Of a DNA stretch of 64,000 nt, positions 18,007-57,900 are shown in pieces (the stretch's first letter is position 1; every line of letters starts with the position of its first letter). A model generated the notes under the pieces. That model ran no database searches. It had not been told where the DNA came from and saw only the letters and a program-made list of their open reading frames with translations. The DNA is from a virus (Duplodnaviria > Caudoviricetes). Location of the stretch: positions 17,268-81,267 of IMG/VR virus record IMGVR_UViG_3300033074_000216. The stretch is one strand, 5' to 3'. A program made the position numbers and the translations under genes.

Positions 18007-18963
18007 ATGTTTTTAAAACTTTTCACAGAACATTTCCCCATTTACGTAGAACTAATGAAATCTACAGAACATAACTCTCCATACCATGCCGAAGGCTCAG
18101 TTTGGACTCACACTTGTATGGTTTATTCAATCCTCAAATCTAGAAGACCAGACTCATACGTTCCTCAAATCGCTGCAATCCTTCATGACTTAGGTAAATG
18201 TATGGTTAAAGTAACGAAAGACGATGGTACATTCTCATTCAACGGACACGAAGGTGTATCTACTCACTTAGCTCTAGACATCCTTCCAATATTCGGACTA
18301 AGAGAATTTGAGAACATCCAAATCTTAAATCTTATCTCTCTTCACGGAGTTAACATCGAGCAACTAACAATCCCTTACATGACTCTATTCAGACATGCAG
18401 ACTCAGTTGGTCGTATTAGTTTGAAAGACATCCGTAAGGACTACGATCCTCGTAAGTTCATTAAACAAGCTTCTGAGTACAAACGAGAAGTTACAATCCT
18501 AACAGGATTACCTTGTTCAGGTAAGTCAACTTACGCTTCTCAATTCAAAGACACTCATAACATTATTTCTCGTGATACATTCCTAATGGATCCTATCATT
18601 AATCCTGATGACCTTCCATATAATGAAATTTATAACTTAGTTCATTCTGACGAAGTTAGTCTTGCTTGTTTTAACAATCTATTCGAATCACACATTCTTA
18701 AGGTTTCGAAAGATTACTCAACACCTATCATCGTAGACATGACTATGTTATCTCTATCTTCAAGACGATCTATAATGGCTAAACTTAAAGACTCTTCATT
18801 CAAATCTGTAGTATTCCTAACTAGGTTAACTACTATTGATGCTCGTAACGCAAACCGACCAGGGAAGGTAATACCAGACGAAGTCCTGTTCAACATGCAG
18901 AAGTCATTCACTATGCCAGTTCGAGAAGAAGGTTTTACTTCAATCGAATACAAACTATCTTAA
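18007..18963 (+). CDS. HD-domain plus P-loop kinase fusion (polynucleotide kinase-like)
   Basis: YHAEGSVWTHT, AILHDLGK, HEGVS; C-terminal GLPCSGKST, IVDMT, IDARNANR. Confidence 0.8.
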   Translation: MFLKLFTEHFPIYVELMKSTEHNSPYHAEGSVWTHTCMVYSILKSRRPDSYVPQIAAILHDLGKCMVKVTKDDGTFSFNGHEGVSTHLALDILPIFGLREFENIQILNLISLHGVNIEQLTIPYMTLFRHADSVGRISLKDIRKDYDPRKFIKQASEYKREVTILTGLPCSGKSTYASQFKDTHNIISRDTFLMDPIINPDDLPYNEIYNLVHSDEVSLACFNNLFESHILKVSKDYSTPIIVDMTMLSLSSRRSIMAKLKDSSFKSVVFLTRLTTIDARNANRPGKVIPDEVLFNMQKSFTMPVREEGFTSIEYKLS

Positions 18964-18971
18964 GGTTCCCA

Positions 18972-19139
18972 ATGATTAAATCAATTATAAACCTAGTACT
19001 CGGTATCTTTGTAGACCGTGCTACAGACTCAATACAAGTAGCTCAGACGACTTTTAAACTTTGGGCTTACCTTTCTATCATTCTATTCGGATCATTCGTT
19101 CTAGCTATCTTATACGGCTTGTACGCTATGATCTTTTAA
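18972..19139 (+). CDS. Small membrane protein (55 aa, not in track)
   Basis: AAGG RBS, ATG 18972, hydrophobic C-terminal half. Confidence 0.5.
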   Translation: MIKSIINLVLGIFVDRATDSIQVAQTTFKLWAYLSIILFGSFVLAILYGLYAMIF

Positions 19140-19147
19140 GAAATATT

Positions 19148-19264
19148 ATGACACATTTATACCCTAAACATTACTACTGTAATACTTGTAAAAAGAAAAT
19201 TAACAAACATATTTATACAACTAATAAAGGTTTATGTAAATCTTGTTTAGAACAAATAAATTAA
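19148..19264 (+). CDS. Tiny zinc-finger protein (38 aa)
   Basis: CNTC...CKSC. Confidence 0.45.
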   Translation: MTHLYPKHYYCNTCKKKINKHIYTTNKGLCKSCLEQIN

Positions 19265-19326
19265 TATCCTTTTAAGCTTACTTACTATATACTGCCTTAA
19301 AACAATGAATATAAAAGGTAGAAATA

Positions 19327-20202
19327 ATGGAAATATACAGAATAGTAAACTTAGTAACTGGAAAAAGTTATATAGGAAAAACAAGTATAGGATACTTGAA
19401 TAGATTTAAAAAACATTTAAACAATGCTTCTAAAAGTATAAATAGATATTTATATGATTCAATGAATAAGTACGGAACTGAATTCTTCATAATAGGAATT
19501 CTTGAAAACTGTACATCAGTTGAAGAGTTAAATCTTAAGGAATCTTACTATATTAAAAAATATAATTCATTATATCCTAACGGTTATAATATGACTACAG
19601 GAGGAGATGGTGGAAATACACTATTAAAATGGTCAGAAGATAAAAAGAAAGAATTATATAAAAAACAAGCAGAAGCAAGATTTGGTAAAACAAGAACAGA
19701 AGAACAACGTAAAAACATGTCTTTAGCTCAAAAAGGTAAAATAATATCACAAGAGACTAAAAAATTAATATCTGAAAAATTAAAGAGTAATTATCAAAAC
19801 AAAACTGAAGAAGAAAAAAGAAAAGCAACTCAACATCTAATTCCTACTTATGGCAATAGAAAAGGTTCAAAACATTCTGAGACATCAAAACTGAAAATGT
19901 CAGAAAATGCTTCAAAATCTTGGGATGAAAAATATACAGAAATTCAAATTACAAAACGAAAACAAAGGTTAAGTAATAGAATGAAAAATAGTAATCCAAA
20001 TAAAGTTGAGATAACATCATCTCAAATAAAACAAATACATAATTTTATAAATACAAACGAACGAGTAGAAATATTCGCAGAAAAAATAGGACTTAGTCCT
20101 TTTAAAATAAGACAAGTTATTAAATCTCTAGGAATAGATAACTTACAACATTACAGACAAAAGGTAAAAAATGAGAAAACTAGTAACAATACAAAAGATT
20201 GA
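19327..20202 (+). mobile_element. Free-standing GIY-YIG homing endonuclease with NUMOD3-like repeats
   Basis: MEIYRIVN..GKSYIGKT, GYNMTTGGDGG, HSETSKLKMSE repeats; more A-rich than neighbours. Confidence 0.85.
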
Positions 20203-21277
20203 TGCATTAATCCCTATGGAAGGATATGATTCAATCCAGTTAGCTCAAATAAAAGGCTGGCAAGTAATAGTTAAAAAAGGCGAGTTCAGTGTAAACGATG
20301 CTTGTTTATTCTTTGAAATTGATTCTTTTTTACCAGCTACTGACACAAGATTTGAATTTTTAGGAAAACCAACTACATTTGAAGGTAAGCAGGGATACAG
20401 GTTAAAAACTAAAAAACTTAAATCTTATTTATCTCAAGGATTAGCCCTACCATTATCAATGTTCCCAGAACTTATCGATTACTCAGAAGACTACTCAGAA
20501 GCACTAGGTGTTATCAAGTACGACGTAGCTGTTCAAGAATTCGATCAAAGACCAGGATTAAAGTCAGGAAGACCAAGAGGCTCATTCCCATCATTTATTC
20601 CTAAGACAGACCAAGAGAGAATCCAAAACCTAACTCACCTATGGCAAACATTAGATCCAAACACAGAGTTCGAAGAAACTCTTAAACTAGATGGATCATC
20701 TATGACTTGTTACAAGATCAAGAAAACTTTATCTCTATGGGACAAAGTAAAACAATTCTTTGGATTCAACGTTAAACCTTACCATTTTGGTGTATGTTCT
20801 AGAAATCTTGAACTTCAACCTAATGCATCTCAATCTCAAACTTTTGACAATGGTGGTAAGATTTCAGTATACGATCAGTCAGACTTCTGGAAACAAGCTG
20901 TTAAGTTAGAATTAGAATCTAAAATCCCTGAAGGCTACGCAATCCAAGGTGAATTAATCGGACCTAAAATCCAAGCTAACCATGAGAAAGTTACTACACT
21001 TGAATACTACGTATTTGATGTATTCGACATTAAGGAACAAAAGTACCTTCTACCATTAGAACGAAGAGTATTCTGTCACAATAACAAAATCCCTCATGTT
21101 CCAATCTTGGGTACATTCCAACCGTTCCGACTTCAATTATCAGACCTACTACTTCATGTTGAGGGTCAATCGATAAATCCTGGAACAATCTCTGAAGGTC
21201 GTGTTTACAAACAATTAGACAGACCATTCTCATTCAAAGTTATATCTAATCAATATCTACTTAAGGCAGAACAATGA
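20171..21277 (+). CDS. RNA ligase (Rnl2/DRB0094-like family)
   Basis: RKLVTIQKI N-terminus, FPSFIPKTDQERIQN, TLKLDGSS (KxDG), IQGELIG, SEGRVYK, FKVISNQYL. Confidence 0.88.
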   Translation: MRKLVTIQKIDALIPMEGYDSIQLAQIKGWQVIVKKGEFSVNDACLFFEIDSFLPATDTRFEFLGKPTTFEGKQGYRLKTKKLKSYLSQGLALPLSMFPELIDYSEDYSEALGVIKYDVAVQEFDQRPGLKSGRPRGSFPSFIPKTDQERIQNLTHLWQTLDPNTEFEETLKLDGSSMTCYKIKKTLSLWDKVKQFFGFNVKPYHFGVCSRNLELQPNASQSQTFDNGGKISVYDQSDFWKQAVKLELESKIPEGYAIQGELIGPKIQANHEKVTTLEYYVFDVFDIKEQKYLLPLERRVFCHNNKIPHVPILGTFQPFRLQLSDLLLHVEGQSINPGTISEGRVYKQLDRPFSFKVISNQYLLKAEQ

Positions 21278-22124: not shown

Positions 22125-22427
22125 ATGGCACAATCAAATGACATTTTAGCTTCATTAGCAGAAGCAATCGCTGCAATCAGCGACAAAAAAGCTAAGAAAA
22201 ACAAAGCTACACCTAAATTCGTTTTAGTAGTAGACGGAAAAGTTAGTCAACAAAGACCAGCTAGCAAAACTGAAGTTGAGAAAGCTGTACACGCTATCTT
22301 AATGGTTAAACCAACAAGCAAAATTGAATTATACAAATTCAAATCTGAATTAGCAATCGCTTTACCAATCAGTGGTTTAGACGGTGAAGCTGAAGCAGAA
22401 ACTTCAACAGAAACTCAAGGAGAATAA
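22125..22427 (+). CDS. Hypothetical protein
   Basis: AAGGA RBS before ATG 22125; acidic C-terminus. Confidence 0.6.
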   Translation: MAQSNDILASLAEAIAAISDKKAKKNKATPKFVLVVDGKVSQQRPASKTEVEKAVHAILMVKPTSKIELYKFKSELAIALPISGLDGEAEAETSTETQGE

Positions 22428-22428
22428 C

Positions 22429-22554
22429 ATGGCAGATTTCGACGTAAACGCATTAATTTCTGAAGTAACTGGTGGAGCTGACACTAGTACTACAGTTAGA
22501 ATAGCTGAAGGACAAGTGTCTCAAGCAAAGGGAAAAAGTGGCGCTATAGCGTAA
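22429..22554 (+). CDS. 41-aa peptide, candidate small modifier or substrate (not in track)
   Basis: AAGGAG RBS, MADFDVNALISEVTGGADTSTTVRIAEGQVSQAKGKSGAIA; directly upstream of the E1-like gene. Confidence 0.6.
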   Translation: MADFDVNALISEVTGGADTSTTVRIAEGQVSQAKGKSGAIA

Positions 22555-22571
22555 TTTTTTCAATTTAACTA

Positions 22572-22587
22572 GGGTTCGCCCTAGTAA
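22572..22587 (+). terminator. UUCG hairpin
   Basis: ctaggg-ttcg-ccctag; coordinates approximate. Confidence 0.45.
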
Positions 22588-22606
22588 TTTAAATAAGGAA
22601 AAAACA

Positions 22607-24130
22607 ATGACAATAACATATGATGTAAAACAACTTTTAAACTCAAGCACTAAAAACTTTTTAAGATTAAAACCAGAATTAATACCAATGCAACATACAG
22701 GATCAGTACTTTCATTGCCATTAATTTTTGCAGTTAACTCTTCATTAACTACTATAAACGATGACCCTCTTTATAGAAGATTCTTTGATATTATACCTAG
22801 TGGTGAACTTCAATCTCTAATTGAGAAAGAATCTAAACTTCCGGGACGAGTTAAACTATACCCAGTATTCTCAGAATCTACACATAAAATCGAACTTGTA
22901 CCACAACTAATCAGAAACGATCAGTGGACTATGAGTGCAACAGACACATCTCAGTATGCTATCATTCCTAATCCTACATACTATGCACAACACGATGGTG
23001 AAGAAGTATTAATAGGTTTCCCTAGAATAGGAATAAGACCATTAACTAATACAAACTCATACTACATTACTGGTTCAGATTTATCTGTATTTGATAAGTT
23101 CGGAGCAGATGGTAAATACTATTCATTCCCATCAGTAGAATCATACGATTTTACTACACACTTGAAAACTCAAATCTATACTAGATACTTCAGACCTAAT
23201 AGTATCACTGATGGTGCAACTTCTGGATCTATAGTAGTTCTAGACACGTTCTTACCATTCTTAGCTATTGGTGACATATCTAATAACAATGATAATAACA
23301 ACATTGTTATCAATCCATCAAGGTATGGAGCAATTAGTCCATTAACAGCTAACTTGTTAAACATAAGTCAAATCCCAATTCAATCTGTACTAAAAGATGT
23401 ACTTAAATTTGAATTACCATACATAGAACAATTACTAAGAACAGTTAAGAAATCTAAGCTTAAAATCGTATTTGCTGGTGTTGGTGGAACAGGTACAAAC
23501 ACAATTTACTGGTTACATGAAATCTGTACATTCTTCAACATTCCAACTATCTTCGACGAAGTATACGTTTATGAGAAAGACAATGTAGACTTCTCAAACA
23601 TCTTTAGATTCCCAATTCTACCTAAAGTATACGAATCAATCAACACAGCTGAACTTCCTAAGATAGCTCTAGTTGACAGATACCTTCGTACTCTATCTAA
23701 GTACATTGTTTACAAAGAACAATACTTAGAATCACACGCAGACGTTCCAAACATTCTATTAGATGAAAACTCTCAAGCTAAACCTGATGTTATCATTTAT
23801 GGTGCTCCATCAATCAGTAACAGAAACTTTCTATCTTCTTTAGGTAGCTTCATTTCTGCAACTCATGCTAACAACACAGCATCTCTATACATCAATCCTA
23901 AAGCTGATGATTCATTACAAGTTGAAACTTACGGATTAATCCAACTTAATTCATTCTTCATCAATCAAATTAGGATGGCTATTGGTTTCTTAGAAATCTT
24001 ATCTGAGAAAGCATACAGACAAGAAGACTTATTATGGTCAGACTACACATTTGTCCCAGCAAACCCAAATTCAGGCAAGTATTTCTTCGACATCAGAAGA
24101 GAAATGCAAGCCCTAGTTGTAGGAGAGTAA
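22607..24130 (+). CDS. Protein with C-terminal ThiF/E1-like adenylation domain
   Basis: KIVFAGVGGTGT (GxGxxG) and EKDNVDFSNIFR (D.D.V..SN..R). Confidence 0.72.
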   Translation: MTITYDVKQLLNSSTKNFLRLKPELIPMQHTGSVLSLPLIFAVNSSLTTINDDPLYRRFFDIIPSGELQSLIEKESKLPGRVKLYPVFSESTHKIELVPQLIRNDQWTMSATDTSQYAIIPNPTYYAQHDGEEVLIGFPRIGIRPLTNTNSYYITGSDLSVFDKFGADGKYYSFPSVESYDFTTHLKTQIYTRYFRPNSITDGATSGSIVVLDTFLPFLAIGDISNNNDNNNIVINPSRYGAISPLTANLLNISQIPIQSVLKDVLKFELPYIEQLLRTVKKSKLKIVFAGVGGTGTNTIYWLHEICTFFNIPTIFDEVYVYEKDNVDFSNIFRFPILPKVYESINTAELPKIALVDRYLRTLSKYIVYKEQYLESHADVPNILLDENSQAKPDVIIYGAPSISNRNFLSSLGSFISATHANNTASLYINPKADDSLQVETYGLIQLNSFFINQIRMAIGFLEILSEKAYRQEDLLWSDYTFVPANPNSGKYFFDIRREMQALVVGE

Positions 24131-24131
24131 C

Positions 24132-25487
24132 ATGAATTCATACATCCCAGACTACCTAGCTACTCAAGCTACGAATCCTAAGCAAAACATCTTAGGTCAA
24201 CTATATCTAAACGAAGTAGAAGCCTTCCAGAAGAAATGTATGCAATCTATGACGGCTACTCCATCAGACCCAACTAAGTATTTTATTGATCCAAATACCT
24301 TAGGAACATTAGTTCCAGTTGATCCAAAGATGAGTAGTTTTGCTGAAATTACAAACAACAGAAGACCATTCGAAGGCTTCAATTATCAATACATCTTCAA
24401 TAATGTTATCAAGAAAATCTTAACTCTTAACGGAACATTCTCATTCGAAGAAGCTATCGTTGAAATCAACAAGTTCAAAGAGAAAGCTGGACCTCACTTC
24501 TATGGTGCAGTTCTAAGAAAAGGTGATAAACTCATCAATCCTTATCATATTCTAACTCCTATTAGTTATATGAAGAACAAAGAAGTATTCAACGATAAAT
24601 ACACAGTTCTATTATTCTTCTACTCAAACATTAACAGTTTATTCTCTGATGGTTTCAAAAGACCAGACGCTGATAAGAAAGACAAAGAATACTGTGAAAC
24701 TTTATTAAACAACATTATCAAATGTTCAAACCATCAAGATGCTGAAGTTAAATCACCTAACAACATAGAAGGATTCTATACAAGTACTTCAATATCTTCT
24801 CCAACAGAAAGATTCACTTCTAGAACCTACTCAAGAAACTCATTTGCAGGATTAAAATATCACGTAGTACAAGCTGAAGAAATTACTGAAAAAGAATTCT
24901 TAGCATTAAACTATGTAACTCAGAACTCAGTTAGTTCATCAAATGGTGAAACATACCTTCTGTCAGCTCACCAAATCATGGTTAACGGAGTATTCGCTCC
25001 TGAGTATGGAGTATCTCTACTTAAGAAATCTAGAAGCTCACTATACGGAACATTCTTAACTCCATCAGCTTCATGCAATATCCAATCAGACTCTCTAAAC
25101 AAAAGTCTGACATTCGCTTCAGTGTGTACTGGACGAGAATCACAAAGTACCTTAAAAGGTATTTCATCTTTACATTGTTGTAACTATGCTTCAGCATACA
25201 ACTCACATGCTCATTCAGACCTTTCAATAGTATTTGCTAAAGAATCTATTGAGAAATGTACAACAATCTATGACAAAATCGGTATACTACCAAAAACACT
25301 AAAAGACACTCCAACTCCAGAAGAACTTGAGAGAATCGCTAATTTTGCAGACTACATCACATACATGACTGAGACATTCAAACTAAGTCTAATGGAAATC
25401 GAAGCAAGATACCAAACAATTAAAGGACAACAAAATGGGAAAGAAAAAGAACAAACATTTGCAAAGACAGACAGCTATGCTAACTGA
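24132..25487 (+). CDS. Hypothetical protein, possible prokaryotic E2-like C-terminal domain
   Basis: N...VCTG segment (SCNIQSD...FASVCTG) resembles the Prok-E2 catalytic region; lies between E1-like and JAB genes. Confidence 0.4.
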   Translation: MNSYIPDYLATQATNPKQNILGQLYLNEVEAFQKKCMQSMTATPSDPTKYFIDPNTLGTLVPVDPKMSSFAEITNNRRPFEGFNYQYIFNNVIKKILTLNGTFSFEEAIVEINKFKEKAGPHFYGAVLRKGDKLINPYHILTPISYMKNKEVFNDKYTVLLFFYSNINSLFSDGFKRPDADKKDKEYCETLLNNIIKCSNHQDAEVKSPNNIEGFYTSTSISSPTERFTSRTYSRNSFAGLKYHVVQAEEITEKEFLALNYVTQNSVSSSNGETYLLSAHQIMVNGVFAPEYGVSLLKKSRSSLYGTFLTPSASCNIQSDSLNKSLTFASVCTGRESQSTLKGISSLHCCNYASAYNSHAHSDLSIVFAKESIEKCTTIYDKIGILPKTLKDTPTPEELERIANFADYITYMTETFKLSLMEIEARYQTIKGQQNGKEKEQTFAKTDSYAN

Positions 25488-26970
25488 GTATAAAACAATT
25501 TATGGCTCAGTAGGCACTACTACTCCTGCCTCTACAGGTCAAACAAGAGCACTCGTACCAATCGATCTAAAGAATCATGGTATTATCCTACAAAAACACA
25601 GCATTATCCAGAAGATGTACGAACAATCAGGACCAAATGCTAAATCAAACGAATTCCAAATGCATTATTGGATGTTAGTTTTCAGACATACATTCGATGA
25701 TGGCGGATTCTTCGACGTAGCAGTTCCAACTTGCTATTTCAACTACGAACAATTCGTATCTGCAGCTCATGTAGACTTCGAGATGAAAGATGTATCAGAA
25801 TTATCTGAGAAGTTAACTCCTCTTCATAATATGATTACTAACCAAATCTTAGCTACAAATTTCAAAGCTGAGTTAGAAACACTATTTGGTGTACCATTTG
25901 AACCAATCTCTGTTGACGTAGGTACTCTACACAGACATCCAGGTTCATCTTACTCTCAAAGATTCTCAGGAACAGACTTAGATGCTAATACAACTAACCA
26001 CGGTATAGTATTCCCATTAAAATCTGGTGTTGATAAACCTTCATTCTCTGGAATCTTAGCTGTTGACGGAACTGAATGCAACGTAGCTCACTACGAATAC
26101 AGATTAGTTAACGGTGCATACGAAACTAATGACATGACATACACTAAGGGTAGATGTTTAGCTATCACTTTAAACGATACTTATACTCCTCCAGTTTTAT
26201 CAGCAGTTCAACGATTCTTCGGAGTAGTTACAGCTGGTGCTCCTCTTAAAACTAAAGAAGACAGTTCATTAGTTCCACAAACTATGATTCAAACTCTTAA
26301 TAGTTTAATCACTTTATTACCAGATCCAAACATCCAATTAATTAGATCTGAGAACGTGAAAACCAGGGTTACGACAACCGTTACAAGATACACAGGTGGC
26401 GGGTTCACTGGTTCATGGATTAATGGCGCTTGGGTACCGAATGCTGAAACGCCTCCTTACAAGTTAGCTATCGCTGATTACGATTATCCATTACAAACTC
26501 TTAAGTTCAATTATGAGAAACACATGAACTTCCACAAACTTCCATTCAAAGACGAAGACATCGCTAAACTTAATAGAACTGAAATGGAAGAAAAACTAAA
26601 AGAAGTTTATGCTTACAAAGCTCCAAAGAAAGAAGAAAAACCAGAAGTTAAAGCTAATGGTAAATTCTTAGTTTGTGAAATTCTTCCTCATACAGAAGAA
26701 GAACTTGAAGCTTTAACAAGAGAAGAACTTATTGCACACCATGATGAACTAGATACTTACTACTACGGAAAAGTGTCTCCATCTATCGCTGAAACTGAAA
26801 CTGACGTAACAAAACAAGAACTAATCGGATACATCACAGAGTTATACGTTAACATCTATGATGAAGAACAAGACTCTTTAGCCGATGCTCCTGGAGTTGT
26901 TACAGCAATACCAAACACTACAGGAAGGTCTCTATATGATTTCGCTGACTACGACGACTGTTGGAACTGA
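25435..26970 (+). CDS. JAB/MPN-like metalloprotease domain protein
   Basis: SNEFQ upstream Glu; GTLHRHPG...FSGTDLD (HxH..S..D JAMM motif). Confidence 0.72.
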   Translation: MGKKKNKHLQRQTAMLTEYKTIYGSVGTTTPASTGQTRALVPIDLKNHGIILQKHSIIQKMYEQSGPNAKSNEFQMHYWMLVFRHTFDDGGFFDVAVPTCYFNYEQFVSAAHVDFEMKDVSELSEKLTPLHNMITNQILATNFKAELETLFGVPFEPISVDVGTLHRHPGSSYSQRFSGTDLDANTTNHGIVFPLKSGVDKPSFSGILAVDGTECNVAHYEYRLVNGAYETNDMTYTKGRCLAITLNDTYTPPVLSAVQRFFGVVTAGAPLKTKEDSSLVPQTMIQTLNSLITLLPDPNIQLIRSENVKTRVTTTVTRYTGGGFTGSWINGAWVPNAETPPYKLAIADYDYPLQTLKFNYEKHMNFHKLPFKDEDIAKLNRTEMEEKLKEVYAYKAPKKEEKPEVKANGKFLVCEILPHTEEELEALTREELIAHHDELDTYYYGKVSPSIAETETDVTKQELIGYITELYVNIYDEEQDSLADAPGVVTAIPNTTGRSLYDFADYDDCWN

Positions 26971-26974
26971 TTCT

Positions 26975-27793
26975 ATGCCATTAGCTGAAGTTGTAGCTAA
27001 CGATACTATTAAACCTAAACGAGTTAAGAAAGTTACAGACCTATCTTACCGAACATTCTTCATCAAGAAGAAAAACGGTAAGACTAGAAAAATCTGTGCT
27101 CCTTCTGCAGACTTACTTAAAGCCCAACGAAGAATACTTCCTGAGTTAGTTGAACACTTTACTTTATATGAAGCTGAACACCTGAAATCGGAAATCTTCC
27201 ACGGATTTATTCCAGGTCGTAACATCGTTACTTGTGCTGAACTTCACAAGAATCTAGACCATACTCTGACTCTAGACATTAGCAACTGTTTCGATTCTAT
27301 CAGTAACGAAATGATTGCATCTTGTGATATCAAACCATTAGACATCTATTTTGAGAAAGAGACTAACTGCTTAGCTCAAGGCTTTGCAACTAGTCCAATT
27401 CTTTCAGCAATCTATCTAGTTAAACCGATCAAAGAGCTAATCACTCTAGTTAAATACATCGATCCAGAAGCTGTAGTTACATGCTACGCTGACGATATCC
27501 AAATTAGTATCCATAAGCAATCTTATGATACTCTTAATAGATTAGTTACTTATGCAACTCATATCTTTGGTCAATACAAACTTACGATCAATCCGAAGAA
27601 AACTCGTATGAGACATTCGAAGTATGGTAATCGTAAGATCTTAGGTATCCAAGTTGGTTCAGAATCTCTGACTCCCTCTCGAAAACTTAAGAAGAAAATC
27701 AGAGCCGCAAAACATCAAGGTAACGGACCATCATTAGGTGGATTAGTTACTGCATCTCGAATGATGTTACCAAAATCGAGAAGACCTAAGTAG
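26975..27793 (+). CDS. Retron-type reverse transcriptase (272 aa)
   Basis: YRTFFIKKKNGKTRKICAP, HGFIPGRNIVTCAELH (retron region X NAxxH-like), DISNCFDSI, LAQGFATSPILS, YADD, KILGIQV; start revised to ATG 26975. Confidence 0.88.
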   Translation: MPLAEVVANDTIKPKRVKKVTDLSYRTFFIKKKNGKTRKICAPSADLLKAQRRILPELVEHFTLYEAEHLKSEIFHGFIPGRNIVTCAELHKNLDHTLTLDISNCFDSISNEMIASCDIKPLDIYFEKETNCLAQGFATSPILSAIYLVKPIKELITLVKYIDPEAVVTCYADDIQISIHKQSYDTLNRLVTYATHIFGQYKLTINPKKTRMRHSKYGNRKILGIQVGSESLTPSRKLKKKIRAAKHQGNGPSLGGLVTASRMMLPKSRRPK

Positions 27794-27801
27794 TCTTCTC
27801 G

Positions 27802-28005
27802 TATAAGTTACAGTTATACTGTATGTAGAACGAAGCCCCGTTACATGGAGTAGCTCGTATCGGTTATCTATCATACTGTGTAACAAAAGACGCTTCGCTT
27901 CCCTTCGGGAAGCTAAAGCGTCTGGAGAACCAGGGACCCTGTGATCCAGCAACATGCATCCATCTCAGCCTCTGGTCAGTACATACAGTATACCTGTGAC
28001 TTATA
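27802..28005 (+). ncRNA. Retron msr/msd-like ncRNA downstream of the RT
   Basis: 26-bp inverted repeat 27802-27827 / 27980-28005 (one mismatch, one G.U); unpaired G27828 opposite G27979; internal stems gttaca/tgtaac, agacgctt/aagcgtct with UUCG hairpin, accag/ctggt. Confidence 0.72.
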
Positions 28006-28220
28006 ATAGACTTTCGAATTAACTTATCTGCTTAGTTTTCGGTAGTTTAACAAGGTTAATTCACACAATTTGTGCAAGTAAATGTACAAAGAGGGAACAT
28101 TTAGTATTAATTTCACACTATAATCCTAGGGTTATAGCTGACATACCTAGACTTTAACAAGTATAACACTTTGTGGTTAGTTTAGTAGTTTGAATCGGCT
28201 ATGTACAAGGGCTAACTATA

Positions 28221-28299
28221 TGAAGGTGTTACAGGATTTCTACAAAGGGACCCAGGCCGTAGGCCAGGGACCCAAAGTAGAAATCCCCCCACACCTTCA
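28221..28299. repeat. GC-rich long imperfect palindrome with two gggaccc copies
   Basis: tgaaggtgt/acaccttca, ggatttctac/gtagaaatcc, gggaccc x2, ggcc-gta-ggcc apex. Confidence 0.7.
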
Positions 28300-28334
28300 C
28301 CGTCTCCAGCATCTTGCTGGCGAGTAGGTATGTC

Positions 28335-28343
28335 TGCTATAAT
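28335..28343 (+). promoter_or_regulatory. Extended -10 promoter (TGnTATAAT) for the replication operon
   Basis: tgctataat about 28 nt upstream of ATG 28371. Confidence 0.5.
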
Positions 28344-28370
28344 CCTAAAATTTAATTTAAAGGACAAACA

Positions 28371-34552: not shown

Positions 34553-36779
34553 GTTAGAACAACTTGGAGCATTCAAAAACGAACTGCCTCCAATTGTCGA
34601 TCTCTTAGTTAAAGCTATTCCCATAAACACAATCCCAGACCGTATGAAACTTATCATATCTATCTCAGAAATGATTTCATTTGCTTCTCAATTCAGACGT
34701 AACATCTGGCATTGGGATGGCTTCGAATTACCAATCAATGCAACTTCTTTCGTTATCGCCGGCTCAGGTGATGGTAAAGACTCAGCTGTTAAAGCTGTTC
34801 GAAGATGCTTTGCAGTTGCTACATCTAACATCGCCGAAGAACGTAAAACTCTAGCTAAGAAACTAGCTATCGCTGCCGCTTCAGAAGCTGGTGAAACTCC
34901 TCCATACGAATTCGAGAATTACAAGAAGTTCTATACTCCACCTCCACCAACATTAATCGCTCCAACTACACCTCAAGGTCTTATTCAACATCTCAATGAC
35001 ATCGCAGACCTACCATTAGGTGCTGGTTCAATCTATGCTGGTGAGTTAGGTGACGAACTTGCTACTAATGCCAACATGCTTGAGATAGTTAAAATCATAG
35101 CTGAAGTATTCGATACTGGTGATAAAGAATCAGTATACACTAAAGGTAAAGAATTCCGTTCTAAGGAAATCTCTGCTATGCCACTATCAGCTTTATTCGT
35201 TGGTTCTCCAAAGTACATCCTTTACGATTATTCAGTTAAAAAGAAATTCTTAATCGCTTTCGAATCTAAATTAGCTAGACGTTCATTCTTCTGTTACATT
35301 CCTAAACCTTTACCTAAAGTAGACAATATCTCTCTTATCGAAGCAACTAAACAGGAAAGACAACTTTCAGTTCAAGCTAACATCTTTAAAGAACAAATCT
35401 CTGACGGTGTAGTTAAAGTTGCTAACTTCCATATGAGAAAAGGTAACGAACTAATTCAAATCGCAGACGAAGTACAAGACTTATTCAACATATACAAACT
35501 TTATAATGATAGGGTTTCAGATACAATCAATCACAAGTATCCATTATCAAAGTTAGTTAGAAAACACCTTCAGTGGAAATCCTTAAAACTAGCAGGTGCT
35601 TTCGCTATATTAGAAGAATCAGATACTATCGAAATCGAACACTACATCTCAGCAATTAGATTCTGTGAACAATTAGACTCAGACATGTTAATCTTCGAAC
35701 AAGACTTATTCAAAGAACAATACGAAGTATTTTCAGACTATATGCAAACTAATGCTACAGACGGTAAGATGTCTTTCACTCTTCATGAGTTAAGAAAGTC
35801 AGGCTACATCTCTGCACAAGGTGGCCCATTAGCTAAGATGAAAGAATTAACTCATTTAGCCTCATCATACGATCCAGAAGGCATTTATACCTATGACAAT
35901 GATGGTGTATACTATGAGAAAATCATAAAAGTTGATGGACTTACTCTATCATATCTTCCAGTTGATAATTCTAAAATCGAGAAAGCTGTAGCTTCAGGAA
36001 ACGAAGTTGCAATCGCTAAAGAGAAAGAACTAGTTGCCAAATCTGCAGTTTCAGGGTACATTCCAGTTACTGTACACTTTGCAGACTTAGCTGATATGCT
36101 AGTTTCAGACAACGCATACTCTCCATTCTTATTCAAAGACAACACTCGTGGTAAAGACAACATCATATCTGGTGCGAAATTCATTGTCCTAGACATTGAT
36201 AAATCTAACATCACTTATACGGAAGCTCATTATATCCTTCAAGATATCAATCACCACATCGTCCAAACTAGTAATAAGAACAACCCATTTAAGTTCAGAA
36301 TCTTAATCGAATTAGATTCAGTAGTTGAAGTTAATGGAATGTTATGGAAACATTTCTATACATCTATAGCTAAATCTTTATCGTTTACTGTAGATGTTCT
36401 TCCTCAATCTCAAATCTTCTATTCATACACAGACAGAGAAATCTTATCTGTTACAGACAAGTCTCCAATCGAAGTTAGAGATCATCTAATGTTAGCTCAC
36501 GATAAAGTTACTGAGAAACCTTCATTAACTGAGAAAGCTCTAACATCTAGTCAAAAGCTAGCTTTATTAGATGACGAACTAACAACATTTAGTTATGCAT
36601 TCGAATGTAAAGAAAACGGCTCTCTTAACATGCTTAAAGCAGCTAAACACGCTAGAGACTTAGGTTTACCTAAAGACGAGATCATCGAGTTACTCTATCG
36701 TATTAATGCTTACTGGGTTTACCCTTTAGATGAATCTAGATTACAATCTACATTAATATCTCAAATCGAGAGGTGGTAA
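34515..36779 (+). CDS. Helicase-primase: DUF3987-like P-loop domain plus C-terminal primase-like domain
   Basis: IAGSGDGKDS P-loop, AGELG; C-terminal IVLDID, HHIVQT, KFRILI and a helical tail; AAGGAG RBS before ATG 34515. Confidence 0.7.
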   Translation: MSQQSLLEQARHELEQLGAFKNELPPIVDLLVKAIPINTIPDRMKLIISISEMISFASQFRRNIWHWDGFELPINATSFVIAGSGDGKDSAVKAVRRCFAVATSNIAEERKTLAKKLAIAAASEAGETPPYEFENYKKFYTPPPPTLIAPTTPQGLIQHLNDIADLPLGAGSIYAGELGDELATNANMLEIVKIIAEVFDTGDKESVYTKGKEFRSKEISAMPLSALFVGSPKYILYDYSVKKKFLIAFESKLARRSFFCYIPKPLPKVDNISLIEATKQERQLSVQANIFKEQISDGVVKVANFHMRKGNELIQIADEVQDLFNIYKLYNDRVSDTINHKYPLSKLVRKHLQWKSLKLAGAFAILEESDTIEIEHYISAIRFCEQLDSDMLIFEQDLFKEQYEVFSDYMQTNATDGKMSFTLHELRKSGYISAQGGPLAKMKELTHLASSYDPEGIYTYDNDGVYYEKIIKVDGLTLSYLPVDNSKIEKAVASGNEVAIAKEKELVAKSAVSGYIPVTVHFADLADMLVSDNAYSPFLFKDNTRGKDNIISGAKFIVLDIDKSNITYTEAHYILQDINHHIVQTSNKNNPFKFRILIELDSVVEVNGMLWKHFYTSIAKSLSFTVDVLPQSQIFYSYTDREILSVTDKSPIEVRDHLMLAHDKVTEKPSLTEKALTSSQKLALLDDELTTFSYAFECKENGSLNMLKAAKHARDLGLPKDEIIELLYRINAYWVYPLDESRLQSTLISQIERW

Positions 36780-51281: not shown

Positions 51282-54200
51282 TTAATGTGGAATAATATGT
51301 GGAACAACTAAATCCTGAGCAAAAGCCATAGGATCTGACCACATAGAAGCTTTTCTAGCCAAACTATCAATAGGATGGTAGAATTGTTTAAATGGTGTTT
51401 CACCAACACCTGAGAATTTTATAGCACCTTCAGTTAACATAACTGAGAATGCTTTGTTACCTAACATTTTCATCATAGCAGGAAATACCCTGAACATATA
51501 CTTAGTAAACGCTAAGAAACCTAAATCATTTGCATACTTAACAAACTTATTATCAAGATAACTATAGTTAACATGTAGCTGATCCATATAGTTCAAATCT
51601 TTCTGTGTAACTTGTCCATTACCTCTATCCATCATATCACTTAGGATAATCATCTTATTGATAGCATCTGAGTAAATAGTTAATTTCATTACACTATCAT
51701 GTATTCTACTATCTTTCTTAATATACAGTAAATCTACAAAACTCTTCAAGTTCTGTCTACTCTTATCTTTCTTGATAATTTTCATAGCATTCTTCAATTT
51801 ACCTTCTAGTATACCTTGTTTATCAAAGTATCCATTATCTATATCAGATAATAACGAGTTAAACTGACCATCTTCAATAATAATTGAAACTGGATTTGCT
51901 TTCATTTTTGCTTTTAACCTATCAATCTCATTTTGACTGATTTTCTCTCCAGACTTTTGTCTAATCTCAAGCTCTAACATCTTAGTTCTATCAGCCTGAT
52001 ATTCATCCATACGTTGCCACATATCGTGAAACTTCTGAATGTAATTCATAGGATTTTTATCTTGAGTATGTTGTAATGCTACAATCATATTAGATAACAT
52101 ATTTCCTTTTACTGTTGCAGGTGTATAAGCTACGATAGCTTGTTTCCAAGCTTTAGTTAATTCCATTACAACTTTCTCTAATTTCTTAGCTATAATTTGT
52201 CTTTTAACTTTGTCTTTAATCCATGGAGCATTAACTAATGATGCATCTTTATATCCAAAGAAGTCAACTAGCATACTTTCTTCAATCATAAGTTTTCCAC
52301 CACTCATTCTCTTTAACTCTCGTTTTAAGTAGAATGGCATTCTGTCCCAGTATTCTTTATATTTACCTTCACTATTTTCTGAAATTTCTATAAAATTAAA
52401 CTTATTACTATGCTTATAACTATTATAGAAATTACTTAAATACATAATTCCTGCTTTATTATTAACCATAGCTTCTTGTTTATGAGTTAAGTTAGATATT
52501 GTACTTGCTAACGTTTCAACAATATTATCATTCAAATCTAATAGATTACTCTTATCCTCATATGGAATTCTAAATCTATAATCGTAAATCTCACCATTTC
52601 CCGACCTTTCAGGTATTAGCGATCCACTCTGTTCAGTTACACTTCCTAATTCACTAGCTAATTCATCTATCTTATCATTAGCTTCTTCTTCAGTCAGTCC
52701 TCTATCCATTAGAATTCTTCTAAGACTATCTCCCTCATTCTTTAGCTGAATCGTACTCATCATCCCTTCAGTATATGCAGGATCAATACTATCTCCAATT
52801 ACTGTATACAAATTCTCTCCAGTAATTCTACTTAACTCAGCATTCTTCCCAATATTCTTCATTCCAGATTTAACTAACTCTTTCATCTCAGCTTCATTAA
52901 CTAGATAATGTCTCTTATCAGTTTTATACACATCTTGTTTAGCACCCTTAATCTGATACATCTCATCACCAAAGTACGCTTTTCTCAATACTTCATCTTC
53001 ATTAGCTTTCTTCAATACTAAAGCTTTCTTAACTCCCTCAGGATTTTTATCCAATCCTTCTTTAGCATTTCTCTTAGTATCTTCATCCAACCTACTCAAT
53101 GCAATCATACTTACAAGCTTATCAATCTCATTTACTACATTCATATCTCTAGTCTTTAATTCAACTAAAGCAATCTGTGCAGCATTTGTGTATCCATTCT
53201 TCATACTCATTTTATTAGTTACTAACAAGTCAGCTAACTCACTCATAGCCAATAATGTCTCTCCACTATACTTCTGAGTTCTTTCATTTAAAACTTGCTC
53301 TAAGAATTTTGGATCACCTAAATAATTTGATATCTCTTCTACACCTCCAATAGCAGAAGCATCTACATCCAGTAATACTCTCTTCAATGATCCTTTAACT
53401 TTAGGTGTTAAATCTTTAAATCCATATACATTATCTAATACTTGTGCAGTCTTACTTTTAACATCAACTACTTCCTTATCTACGAATGCTTTACTCTTTC
53501 TAAACATCTCATAGAACTTAGCAACTTCTGGACTACTAAAATCCCTAGTAACACTATTAAACACATTATTCTGAAGCATAGCACTTCTTACTTTTGCTAA
53601 TCCTCTAATACTCCAAATCTTATCCATAGCTTGTTTAAGTTTATCATCTTCTTGACTATTAATATACTCTTCATAAGTCTTATATTCTTTCTCTATCTTT
53701 CCAGTATACTTAGCTATTCTCTTATCAATCGCAGTAATCTTATCAATAACTTGACTCATTACTCCTTTATCTTGTAACTTACTTCTATTATGACCTTTAG
53801 TTAATGCCTCATCTAGTAAACCTAATGCTAATTCTCTAGCACTCTTTCCACCATTCATTTTAGCATTATACGCAGAATTTAATAGTCTAATTACTTTATT
53901 AACTAACTTAGTCCACTTACCTGTCTCATTAACTTCTTGAAACAATCTTCCTTGTTCTAAATTCGTTACAATTCCTAATTGACCAACAAGTTGCTCATTA
54001 GTCGTAGCATAAGCTAGGAACTCATCTGCTCCAAACTTTGGATTACTAAACACATACTCATATTTTAGTTGTGCATCATTAACATCAGCATTCTGTCTAC
54101 CTTCAGTAAATACTTTCCAACCTTGACCTTTATACTTTTGATTAAAGTAATTCTTTAAAGCTTCTCTCATTCTAAGAATATTATACTCTAGTTGTTTATC

Positions 54201-54920
54201 TTTTCCAATAACTTCTCTCAAGAGAATATGTTGCATCTCATGTGATAAGATTTCACTTAATGTATTATTCTTTTGATTACCTAGAATTAATTTCAATTTA
54301 GCAGTTTGCGGATCAGCTTCCCCTCTAGTATTTCCTCTAGCATCTAAATCTTGGAATGTCTGTAAATTAAACTCTACATCCTTTCCTGCTTCCTGCAATA
54401 CATCACTATATTTCTTAATAACATTTCTTAGATGTTCAGCATGTTCTGAACTTAAAGCCTCACCATCTGTTTCAATCATATCTTCAAGCATATCATTAAT
54501 ATCATTTAATACAGTTCCAGTTACTTCAGCTAACTTAATAGTATTCCCTTCGAAAGCTTCTTCACTTCCCATAGCATACTTACCATCTCTAGTTTGATTA
54601 TTCTTAACATCTAGTACATACTCACCATTATTAATACTAACAATCCCTGCACTTAACATCTCTGCAGACTTTACATGTACATCTACAAATCTAGCTGTAT
54701 CAAATTCTTCTAATCCAATTGTAGTTCCTACAAGCTTACTAGCATAATCAATTCCATAAAATACTCTAGTCTTTGCTGTTGAATACTTGCCAGTTTTCTG
54801 AGCATTTCTTACACTAGCATTTACTCTTCTAGCATTATCAGCTTCAACCATAGCCCGTATTAACGGACCATGATCATCATATTTATTTACAACTTCTTCT
54901 AATTTATTTGGACATACCAT
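51282..54920 (-). CDS. Large virion/ejected protein with zincin-like HExxH motif
   Basis: MVCPNK reads from the reverse complement at 54920; LSHEMQH and ADEFLAY; downstream of vRNAP. Confidence 0.75.
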   Translation of the reverse strand: MVCPNKLEEVVNKYDDHGPLIRAMVEADNARRVNASVRNAQKTGKYSTAKTRVFYGIDYASKLVGTTIGLEEFDTARFVDVHVKSAEMLSAGIVSINNGEYVLDVKNNQTRDGKYAMGSEEAFEGNTIKLAEVTGTVLNDINDMLEDMIETDGEALSSEHAEHLRNVIKKYSDVLQEAGKDVEFNLQTFQDLDARGNTRGEADPQTAKLKLILGNQKNNTLSEILSHEMQHILLREVIGKDKQLEYNILRMREALKNYFNQKYKGQGWKVFTEGRQNADVNDAQLKYEYVFSNPKFGADEFLAYATTNEQLVGQLGIVTNLEQGRLFQEVNETGKWTKLVNKVIRLLNSAYNAKMNGGKSARELALGLLDEALTKGHNRSKLQDKGVMSQVIDKITAIDKRIAKYTGKIEKEYKTYEEYINSQEDDKLKQAMDKIWSIRGLAKVRSAMLQNNVFNSVTRDFSSPEVAKFYEMFRKSKAFVDKEVVDVKSKTAQVLDNVYGFKDLTPKVKGSLKRVLLDVDASAIGGVEEISNYLGDPKFLEQVLNERTQKYSGETLLAMSELADLLVTNKMSMKNGYTNAAQIALVELKTRDMNVVNEIDKLVSMIALSRLDEDTKRNAKEGLDKNPEGVKKALVLKKANEDEVLRKAYFGDEMYQIKGAKQDVYKTDKRHYLVNEAEMKELVKSGMKNIGKNAELSRITGENLYTVIGDSIDPAYTEGMMSTIQLKNEGDSLRRILMDRGLTEEEANDKIDELASELGSVTEQSGSLIPERSGNGEIYDYRFRIPYEDKSNLLDLNDNIVETLASTISNLTHKQEAMVNNKAGIMYLSNFYNSYKHSNKFNFIEISENSEGKYKEYWDRMPFYLKRELKRMSGGKLMIEESMLVDFFGYKDASLVNAPWIKDKVKRQIIAKKLEKVVMELTKAWKQAIVAYTPATVKGNMLSNMIVALQHTQDKNPMNYIQKFHDMWQRMDEYQADRTKMLELEIRQKSGEKISQNEIDRLKAKMKANPVSIIIEDGQFNSLLSDIDNGYFDKQGILEGKLKNAMKIIKKDKSRQNLKSFVDLLYIKKDSRIHDSVMKLTIYSDAINKMIILSDMMDRGNGQVTQKDLNYMDQLHVNYSYLDNKFVKYANDLGFLAFTKYMFRVFPAMMKMLGNKAFSVMLTEGAIKFSGVGETPFKQFYHPIDSLARKASMWSDPMAFAQDLVVPHIIPH

Positions 54921-54929
54921 TATTATTCC

Positions 54930-57900
54930 TTAACATTGTATTTCTTCTATTAACTCACCTAATTTAGCTTGACTATATGGAGAAACACCTTCATTTTGTA
55001 TTGGAGGTAGTATACCATCATTTACCTTAGCTACTTCTTTAACTGGCTCCATAGCCATTGCTGGAATCAATTCAGTCAACATAAAGTGAATCATATCTTT
55101 CTCATCTTGATTACCTTCATTATTCCATACAGCATACCTTCCAGTTAACTCTTTTGGACTCCACTCAGCTGCTTCAAAACTATCACCAACGTAATACTGT
55201 TTAACCTTAGCTGGAGTATTAACTAAGTTTCTTCTAGAGTCATCAACTTCATTTAAAGTATCAAACGCTTTATTCATAGCTTTTTCAATACTTTCTTTAC
55301 TAACACTTTTCAGATTAAAGATTCTTTTTAAATCATTCTTTAATTCTTCTTTATCAGTTTGAGTCATTTCTTGCATATGTTGTCCAACTAATTGTTGAAT
55401 TTCTTTTCTAGCAACTTTTTCAACTGCAGTTCCAAGAACACTATGATTCATTAAGATATCGTAATACATTTGGTTAATAAACTTAACTTGTTCATTATTA
55501 GTTTCATAATCAGTTCCAAGTACTAAGGCATCAAAGATATTCAATACATCTTTAATATGTCCTTTAATCATTGTTGAACCATCAATACTATGAATATCAA
55601 TAACCCCTACAGCTCCAACATTCGATGTAATCATCTTAACAATCTGATTAACTTTAGATGGATTTACTATTTTACCAGAGTAGAATTTACTCATACCTTG
55701 AGTTAAGTTAACTGTAATAGTTTCACTAGAATGATTTGCATCTTGCTCAGTTTTAAAGTAATCTTGCATACCACCATTAGTATTATAACTTCCATAGTAA
55801 GTTCCCTCAGCTAATAATTTATCCTTAACTGCTTTCTCTTGCTCTTTAGTTAATTTACTATAATTTTCAGTACCAAACATATCTCTTGCTGCATTCTTAA
55901 ATGCTTGTTTACTAGCTAAGTAGTTAATATGATTAACAGCTTTGATTGCTTTTCTATACTCAGTAATAGGAGCAAACTCACTATTAAATGCAGTTTCTAA
56001 CTTAGAACCTATAGACTCATTAATAATCAATGTCATAGCATTTCTTAATCTATCATCTAAGTAATACTCACCATTTGCATCTTTCTCAATTCTACCAGTA
56101 TTTTTATTATAACTTTTTCTTTCAATCTTAAGTAATTCTCTTTGAACAATTCCAATAGCATTAGCTAACTTTCTATTCTTTTTATTCAGTGCAGATTCAA
56201 CACTACCTTGTTTAATAAAGATATCCATAGCTCTTACCATATCAGAAGGTTTCTTTAATTTAGTTACTATTCCCATAGCTAAATCATCACTACCTTTTAA
56301 TCCAATGTTATACATACTAGCTCCGTATGCAAATACCATTACTAATGGTTTTAAGAAACTTCTCCATTTCTTATCTGCTTTAGCTGTATCTTGTGTATTA
56401 CCTGTTACTAAGTAATTTACAACTTTATACAATTCAGACTCTTTCGTATCTGGATCTTCATTCATTGTTCTTGACGTATTTAATTCATCTACAAACTTAA
56501 CAGCAGGTGTTTGATAAAAGTCAACGCCACCTTTCTCTTTAAACTGTCCATGAGACTCAATAGTTTCACCATTTAGTGTATCATAACCATTTAAGTATGT
56601 TCCACATTTAATGTAATACCCAGCTGTTCTATCATTCAATCCAATTTGTGCTACTGTAGACATCATACCATTCGTAATACCATCTACTTCTAAAGCTAAG
56701 CTAGTTTCTAGTTTCTCACCATTAACAATCTTTTGAGCTAGTGCAATCCCTTGATAAACATGCATAATATGCTCTGGACTCACACCCATAACTTTGTTAA
56801 GAGCAGTTAAAACATCTTTACTTTTCATAACTTCTTTTAGTTTATCATCTTTAACTTTAACACTATACTTTCCATCGTTATCTAAACTAATATCAATATA
56901 ATCTTTTTTAAGCTTTTCAATTACAGTTTCATCTGTAAACTTATCTGGATCTAAATCTAATGCTTGTGCAAACCCTAGATTTATATTATTCAAATCTTTT
57001 TGTCTTTGAGCAATACTTTTCTCAGGTGAATCAACATTATTTCTCATATCTTTAGCAGACACAATAAATCTTGATAATTTACTATTTTGTGGATTAATCA
57101 TTCTATTATTCATCATACTTCTATTAGAAATAGTAAAGTCCCAATTAATATAGAATCCATTTCCATTAGCAATTTCGTATGCCATCATCATTCGTTCAAT
57201 ATCTAAATCATCAGCTTCATATTTAGCAATCGCACTTTCAATTTCATTAACATTTGTATTATTAATAAGATTTTCTTTAGTACCAATCATTGCTTTTTTC
57301 AATGCATCTAAATCTTTATTAAACTCAGTTTCCCACATTCTAACAAAATCATCACTAAACTTCCACTCAATACTATTTTGTCTATTTAAATAATCAATTT
57401 CTGAGTTACTCATAGGAACATCACTATTTCTACCAAGTTTCCCATATTCAAATGTTGTAGGTGTTAAACCAATCATACCATCTGTATGCTCTCTAGCATA
57501 CTCAAATATAATAGCACTATCTCCAACTTTTTTAAGTTGATTATCAGTTAGACCATCTAACATCATAACTCTGATTGGCATCTGTACATTTACAGGATCT
57601 TCTTCACCTTTAATATGTACTCCATCTTCAGTCATACCTGCTACTGTTTTTCTAATTTTAAAACTATCTTTAGTTTGACTATTAGCTAAGATATTATCAA
57701 CTACTATCATACCAAGCGCTTGAATTGCATCCATTCTATCTTGAGCAGTCTTAGTATCTAACTTAATCTCTAACTCTTCAAGTAATCTTCTACCAGCTTT
57801 ACTAGCATATGTAGCTATCGGAACTAAGTTACCTTTTCTAATCTCATTCTTTAACTTACTAATATCTCTATCTTTAGTTTCAGAATCTTCACTCCATAAT

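Follow-up and report, generated by a model that had tools for sequence, protein, structure and literature searches.

The stretch of viral DNA analysed here, referred to below as the window, comprises 64,000 nucleotides (nt; positions 17,268 to 81,267 of IMG/VR record IMGVR_UViG_3300033074_000216). It carries a conserved and apparently undescribed set of genes in which a small protein, c3, and a 41-amino-acid (aa) peptide are followed by three larger proteins, which we call A, B and C; behind them lie a retron-type reverse transcriptase (RT) and tandem RNA units (Table 1). A first-pass annotation of the region had described the three larger genes and the RT as contiguous and tightly spaced, and our analysis bears this out: all four are on the plus strand, A and B are separated by 1 nt, B and C overlap, and the gap between C and the RT is 4 nt if the RT starts at M31 (position 26975), as its relatives indicate. 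The ThiF-like, VCTG and JAMM motifs that the annotation had named are present in the window proteins and conserved across their families. The annotated block began at 22429, which is the ATG of a real gene for the 41-aa peptide, a gene that went unmentioned in its text.

Table 1. Features of the cassette region, in window positions
Feature	Position	Strand	Basis
c3, ~90-100 aa, no family	22125..22427	+	homologs at same position
Peptide gene, 41 aa, candidate tag/substrate	22429..22554	+	ribosome-binding site, homologs
Short G+C-rich hairpin between peptide gene and A	22569..22586	+	same-spacer hairpin in relatives
A, ThiF/E1-like, 507 aa	22607..24130	+	motifs, hhalign, PDB profile, Pfam match of a homolog
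B, new-family protein, 451 aa	24132..25487	+	family alignment
C, JAB/MPN+ metalloprotease, 511 aa	25435..26970	+	JAB fold, JAMM site
Retron-type RT	26975..27793 (reading frame opens at 26885; start inferred from relatives)	+	RVT_1, PADLOC
RNA unit 1, 31-nt inverted repeat	27797..28010	+	arms 27797-27827 / 27980-28010
RNA unit 2, 28-nt inverted repeat, palindrome 28221-28299	28122..28352	+	inverted repeats

Recurrence and distribution of the cassette

Family profiles were run on 12 IMG/VR loci and 22 metagenome loci, and C proteins clustering at 85% shared identity or more were counted as one lineage, which gave 25 lineages. The order peptide-A-B-C is kept in every one of them (25/25), with c3 as an optional gene in front. 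This confirms that the same gene order is present in 25 distinct phage lineages, far beyond what chance would produce.

Pattern scans of 185,579 prokaryote genomes, one per species, found no relatives of A and C, and neither protein had a tblastn match among 50,697 GenBank phage records; the cassette region as a whole gave no megablast match in GenBank phages. Within the material sampled, only uncultured phages carry the cassette, and full-text literature searches found no paper that describes it. Metagenomes of wastewater, freshwater and aquatic origin, taken from several studies, contain DNA nearly identical to that of the window. The source record is an 81-kb IMG/VR virus record, estimated to be 77% complete, and relatives of this phage have ~100-kb genomes with terminal repeats; the carrier of the cassette is an uncultured ~100-kb wastewater/freshwater phage. 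Contigs from RNA libraries of two studies overlap parts of c3, the peptide gene, A, B, C, the RT and RNA unit 1. These contigs are assembled and may include DNA, so that they are no proof of transcription, and the parts they do not cover are uninformative; we take them as a weak hint of expression. A scan for promoters and terminators returned nothing above shuffled expectation.

The peptide and the proteins A, B and C

Wherever a contig extends far enough upstream of A, it carries a homologous open reading frame (ORF) of 38-52 aa immediately before that gene; in the window and most relatives an AGGAG ribosome-binding site precedes the peptide ATG by 5-8 nt. The window peptide consists of an N-terminal amphipathic stretch, a Thr/Ser-rich middle and a ...KGKSG end followed by a three-residue tail, AIA; the amphipathic stretch and the Thr/Ser-rich middle are common to its homologs. 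Ser37 and Gly38 are nearly invariant (often as KSGSG), and 1-9 unconserved residues follow. A near-invariant Ser-Gly with a variable tail is the pattern one would expect of a precursor that is trimmed to expose a reactive glycine. No other credible ORF with the same tail was found in the 81-kb record, nor was a folded ubiquitin-like protein identified; the likely tag is an unfolded peptide of ~40 aa. In one locus (L002:6489-7376), the peptide gene and A are separated by an inserted ORF of the HNH/AP2-like endonuclease type.

In 14 of the 15 loci that were folded, the same spacer behind the peptide gene holds a covarying G+C-rich hairpin of 6-10 bp, often with a tetraloop, whose sequence differs from locus to locus. 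It is not a canonical terminator, and may act as an attenuator or stabilise an RNA 3' end; its conservation at this place would fit a peptide that is produced in excess over the enzymes. Upstream of the peptide gene, c3 has a homolog at the corresponding place in 9 of 13 viral loci and in the majority of those from metagenomes. c3 has no Pfam or NCBIfam match, and its comparison with ThiS by hhalign was not significant (P 0.12).

Protein A consists of a variable N-terminal domain (residues 1-270) and a conserved core (about 275-507). Across the family, GxGGT(G)xN, (E/D)..V(D/E)FSN..RFP and K352 are invariant or nearly so; their order and spacing are those of the signature of ubiquitin-activating (E1) enzymes, and in alignments they fall on the corresponding motifs of E. 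coli MoeB and ThiF. When the alignment of the A core was compared with MoeB by hhalign, the match fell exactly over the E1 motifs (P 2.6e-4), and the whole-protein alignment gave P 0.004 for MoeB and 0.048 for ThiF. Searched against 177,635 PDB sequences, the core profile placed a 'THIF-type NAD/FAD binding fold' protein at the top of its list (E 0.085), while the full-length profile retrieved nothing relevant. Three of 31 relatives have a ThiF match in Pfam, the best at 25.3 bits against a cut-off of 28.1; one homolog (P0044) matches PF00899 at 1e-5, just below the gathering score, and a search of the whole phage record with the PF00899 hidden Markov model gave no candidates. A feature search of the Atlas pointed to ThiF and BilD_N clusters, which we treat as a lead only. 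The earlier reading of A as ThiF-like thus stands on motifs and weak profiles and falls short of the Pfam gathering threshold; we regard a ThiF/E1-like identity as moderately supported by these comparisons. Like MoeB and ThiF, A lacks an invariant Cys. Its N-terminal half ranges from absent (in 333-aa proteins) to about 450 residues, as in L003:6951-9011 and L007:7038-9026 compared with L004:7983-8984, while the ThiF-like core is constant; the N-terminal domain is an exchangeable accessory.

Protein C has a JAB/MPN+ core at about residues 43-320, assigned to the MPN fold by the fold test, and a helical C-terminal extension. Among 36 diverse sequences, H166, H168, S178 and D181 are invariant and E73 is found in at least 90%; the spacing from HxH to S is 9 residues, compared with the usual ~7. 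None of the 36 members matches the Pfam JAB or Prok-JAB models, and a search of the phage record with PF14464 gave no candidates. With a JAB fold and an intact E...HxH...S..D site, the earlier identification of C as a JAMM protein is upheld. In three loci (L005:10023-11739, L006 and L043:1664-2930) C is split into two ORFs, and in L005 and L006 an ORF of 109 aa without a family (10484-10813) lies between the halves; this could be an insertion of an intron or homing element, or a naturally split gene. In a metagenome contig (L046:2005-4224), B and C each fall into three overlapping frames, which is due to decay of the genes or to assembly errors.

Protein B is the member of the cassette whose nature is hardest to read. 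Its family holds 373 clusters (50% identity) at E<=1e-3 among 1.84 billion representatives. Eight residues are invariant in an alignment of 79 diverse members, including N136, N316, S354 and C332 of the VCTG motif, which is the sole invariant Cys; H139 is near-invariant. The AlphaFold2 model of B has a predicted local distance difference test (pLDDT) score of 62, falling below 50 around the Cys, and gave no significant match with Foldseek or in a wide search with VIA-align. A human ubiquitin-conjugating (E2) enzyme in the Foldseek list, at rank 48 with E 4.6, was non-significant and was not counted. None of the 79 members matches UQ_con or any Prok-E2 model at E<=0.05, profiles of the full-length protein and of its core retrieved no E2 from the PDB, and no relative was found in the ESM Atlas. 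N316 and C332 are 8-16 residues apart, the distance varying between members, and bear only a loose resemblance to the HPN...C motif of E2 enzymes. The E2-like label that the first-pass annotation gave to B, and itself called its weakest link, found no Pfam, PDB or fold match; an E2 identity is possible but unsupported by these searches. Judged from its sequences, B represents a new family without known relatives.

The reverse transcriptase module and the genomic surroundings

The RT of the window matches Pfam RVT_1 at 6e-22 and PADLOC retron models at up to 2.5e-34 (RT_III-A). It scores 107 bits (1e-30) against NCBIfam retron_St85_RT, under the cut-off of 235, and remains under every curated family cut-off. 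The earlier assignment of the RT to the retron type agrees with these best-scoring models, and with the stem-closed RNAs that follow it. In each of the seven loci examined, the RT is followed by a non-coding stretch of 0.5-1 kb with two to three tandem units; the inverted repeats that close them are 20-31 nt long, and the two arms lie 140-240 nt from each other. The arms of RNA unit 1 in the window are 87% complementary, and its first 230 nt have a predicted fold of -82 kcal/mol. Across loci the architecture of the units is conserved while their sequences are unrelated, and the region after the RT matched no Rfam family. As in retrons, the RNAs are closed by long inverted repeats resembling a1/a2 stems; in contrast to retrons, they lie downstream rather than upstream of the RT, they come in two to three tandem copies, and the genome is that of a lytic-type phage without a classical effector. 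Multicopy single-stranded DNA (msDNA) is hypothetical here.

Twenty lineages were informative about the position of the RT. It directly follows C in nine (mostly with an overlap or a gap of 12 nt or less, and 22 nt in L007), lies 0.9-4.6 kb downstream in three, and is not found near C in eight. Among these eight are two complete genomes (97 and 102 kb, both with terminal repeats), which carry peptide-A-B-C and no RVT_1 anywhere, while positive controls matched. The first-pass annotation had raised the question whether the order E1-E2-JAB-RT-ncRNA recurs; its first part, with the peptide in front and B in the E2 place, recurs in 25 of 25 lineages, and the directly adjacent RT in 9 of 20. The A proteins of the nine lineages with an adjacent RT are ~33-47% identical to that of the window. 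In IMG/VR, members of the RT clade occurred on contigs bearing the cassette and otherwise only on cut or incomplete contigs; RT homologs apart from the block, which would have counted against the first-pass model, were limited in the sample to one incomplete record with the RT and no C. The record of locus L009 (G003) has a different RVT_1 gene (35471-36070, minus strand, 367-aa frame) ~35 kb away and none next to its cassette.

Where the RT is missing, 0-283 nt follow C. As the non-coding units are present with the RT and a short spacer is found without it, the RT and its RNAs are present or absent together, as a single unit. The trees of A and C are too poorly resolved to tell a single from a repeated gain of the RT, and all carriers belong to one phage lineage, so that shared descent is not separable from functional linkage. 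The coupling of the RT to the cassette is one of genomic linkage only, and the RT is a frequent but dispensable add-on. The functional coupling proposed earlier does not follow from this pattern: the RT directly follows C in 9 of 20 lineages, yet the block is found without a nearby RT in the eight lineages mentioned, the two complete genomes among them.

The phage itself codes for NAMPT, a PNK-like protein, an RNA ligase, RusA, a family-A DNA polymerase, a primase, a helicase, a ribonucleotide reductase and a giant protein resembling virion RNA polymerase; its DNA polymerase has at most about 36% identity to any GenBank phage counterpart. An RNA-repair and NAD toolkit (NAMPT, PNK-like ATPase, RNA ligase; window 15096-21277) adjoins the cassette, and in locus L005 an RlaP-type nucleotidyltransferase (11750-12514) lies directly after C. 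A GIY-YIG homing endonuclease (19327-20202) sits beside the RNA ligase (20171-21277) in the window, and homing elements seem to be frequent in the cassette region of these genomes. Two giant ORFs of 1212 and 2424 aa occupy the minus strand at 51282-62204; the smaller matches the PHROG for virion RNA polymerase, a match that points to an infection strategy like that of N4 or crAss phages.

A candidate peptide-tagging cassette and its alternatives

Based on these findings we suggest, with about even confidence, that c3, the peptide, A, B and C form an autonomous phage cassette for peptide tagging, assembled from ubiquitin-pathway enzymes. We infer the following steps. The unfolded ~40-aa peptide would be produced in excess, at a ratio that the hairpin after its gene may set, and C would trim the tail of 1-9 residues to expose the conserved Gly38. 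A would then adenylate Gly38 at the expense of ATP; lacking a conserved Cys of its own, A would transfer the acyl group straight to Cys332 of B, acting as an E2-like carrier or ligase, and B would hand the peptide to an amino group of a target from the phage or its host. The same protease, C, might also undo the tagging. The RT and its two to three stem-closed RNAs would be a separate module that may use or regulate the cassette, which would work without them; we consider the cassette autonomous because two complete genomes, and other lineages besides, carry peptide-A-B-C without the RT.

Several points weigh against this proposal. Neither A nor C of the window has a Pfam or NCBIfam match, and a peptide of this length could not form a beta-grasp fold. 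Binding of ATP or of the peptide by A is a prediction, and in a low-confidence hhalign alignment, the invariant Pro401 of YGAPxIxxR stands where ThiF has its Mg-binding Asp (DxxDN), so that A may be E1-like in an atypical form or without adenylating activity. The role given to B is a guess from one invariant Cys in a protein that matches no E2 family or fold, and the conjugation target is proposed and hypothetical.

The main rival, unlikely in our view, is that the cassette yields a peptide-derived product or carrier. Sulfur-carrier pathways combine an E1-like enzyme, a JAB protein and a small Gly-tailed substrate, so that the gene content which suggests tagging also defines them. In the sulfur version, a thiocarboxylate carrier would follow QbsE/QbsD/QbsC or TtuB/TtuC, with the Cys of B as a persulfide relay that thiolates tRNA or DNA (such pathways are reviewed in PMC1779556); in the other version, the peptide would be nucleotidylated at its C-terminus or otherwise changed, as with MccB and PaaA. 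The cassette would share with QbsC/D/E, CysO-Mec+ and TtuB/TtuC a small substrate whose Gly is hidden by extra residues that a JAMM protein removes, and an adenylating enzyme of the MoeB/ThiF type lacking the E1 Cys; its location among RNA-repair and tRNA-related genes (NAMPT, PNK-like, RNA ligase, a Ro60-like locus) would also agree with such a role. However, the known sulfur carriers are folded beta-grasp proteins and not 40-aa peptides, and the cassette shows no sulfur-inserting enzyme such as a rhodanese or a PP-loop ATPase. In MccA-type substrates the last residue is Asn; the peptides of the present cassette end in varying residues and keep the Gly.

A second alternative, which was the model of the first-pass annotation and seems to us improbable, makes one system of the RT, the RNAs and the E1/Cys/JAB proteins, in which complementary DNA (cDNA) gates tagging, or the peptide chemistry acts on the RT itself or on its msDNA. 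The placement of the RT directly after C in nine of 20 lineages and within 5 kb in three more speaks for it, as do the RT clade's restriction in IMG/VR to cassette-bearing or cut-off contigs and the RNA units that always accompany the RT. The eight lineages without a nearby RT, two of them represented by complete genomes free of RVT_1, argue against it, and the co-occurrence may reflect shared descent within the one phage lineage. In addition, the RT has no Gly tail like that of the peptide. The more specific claim that the RT and the tandem RNAs are wired to peptide tagging, either with the peptide joined to the RT or to cDNA/RNA or with cDNA switching tagging on, strikes us as slightly more doubtful still. 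Least likely of all is that B is a second peptidase or amidase (Cys332 with N136/H139) and the peptide is processed or cyclised and attached to nothing: among the polar residues of B, conservation is highest for Cys, His and Asn, and Bub operons also pair a JAB with a second protease (PMC11601596), but B matches no peptidase family or fold, and the model of its Cys region is unreliable (pLDDT <50).

Returning to the peptide-tagging proposal, the closest precedents are the Bub operons and Cap2/Cap3 of the cyclic oligonucleotide-based antiphage signalling system (CBASS). A Type I Bub operon comprises BubAB, BubCD (a JAB-E1 fusion) and BubE; its JAB-E1 enzymes, which have no catalytic Cys, trim a precursor and thereby expose the reactive Gly (PMC11601596). 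In the phage cassette, by contrast, the JAB and E1-like proteins are encoded separately, the substrate would be a ~40-aa peptide rather than a beta-grasp ubiquitin-like protein, and the protein in the middle, which has no match to any E2 family, carries a conserved Cys, where Bub uses oxyesters; moreover, Bub is a bacterial defence operon while the present genes are encoded by a phage. E1 chemistry in CBASS targets a flexible Gly-ended C-terminal tail and not folded ubiquitin (PMC10097602). The cassette resembles Cap2 (E2-E1) and Cap3 (JAB) of type II CBASS in having a flexible Gly tail as the putative substrate and a JAB that would trim or reverse; it differs in that the tail belongs to a free-standing peptide, with no CD-NTase and no recognisable E2 domain. 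The signature partners of type II CBASS, Bil and PRTRC systems, namely a CD-NTase, a beta-grasp ubiquitin-like protein or the PRTRC proteins, were not detected with PADLOC models, and NCBIfam gave no PRTRC match.

To our knowledge, ubiquitin-like conjugation in prokaryotes has so far been known as an anti-phage weapon of the host (CBASS Cap2/Cap3, Bil, Bub). The cassette would give comparable machinery to a lineage of large lytic-type phages, with an unfolded peptide of ~40 aa in place of a beta-grasp protein as the tag. It would thus bear on the minimum needed for E1-driven tagging, on the targets that phages may tag in the course of infection, and on a possible new carrier or ligase fold. 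The recurrent RT/RNA module behind the cassette makes a concrete and testable module pair; should the RT prove to be wired to tagging, reverse-transcribed DNA would for the first time be connected with ubiquitin-type conjugation, in a viral system and not in host defence.

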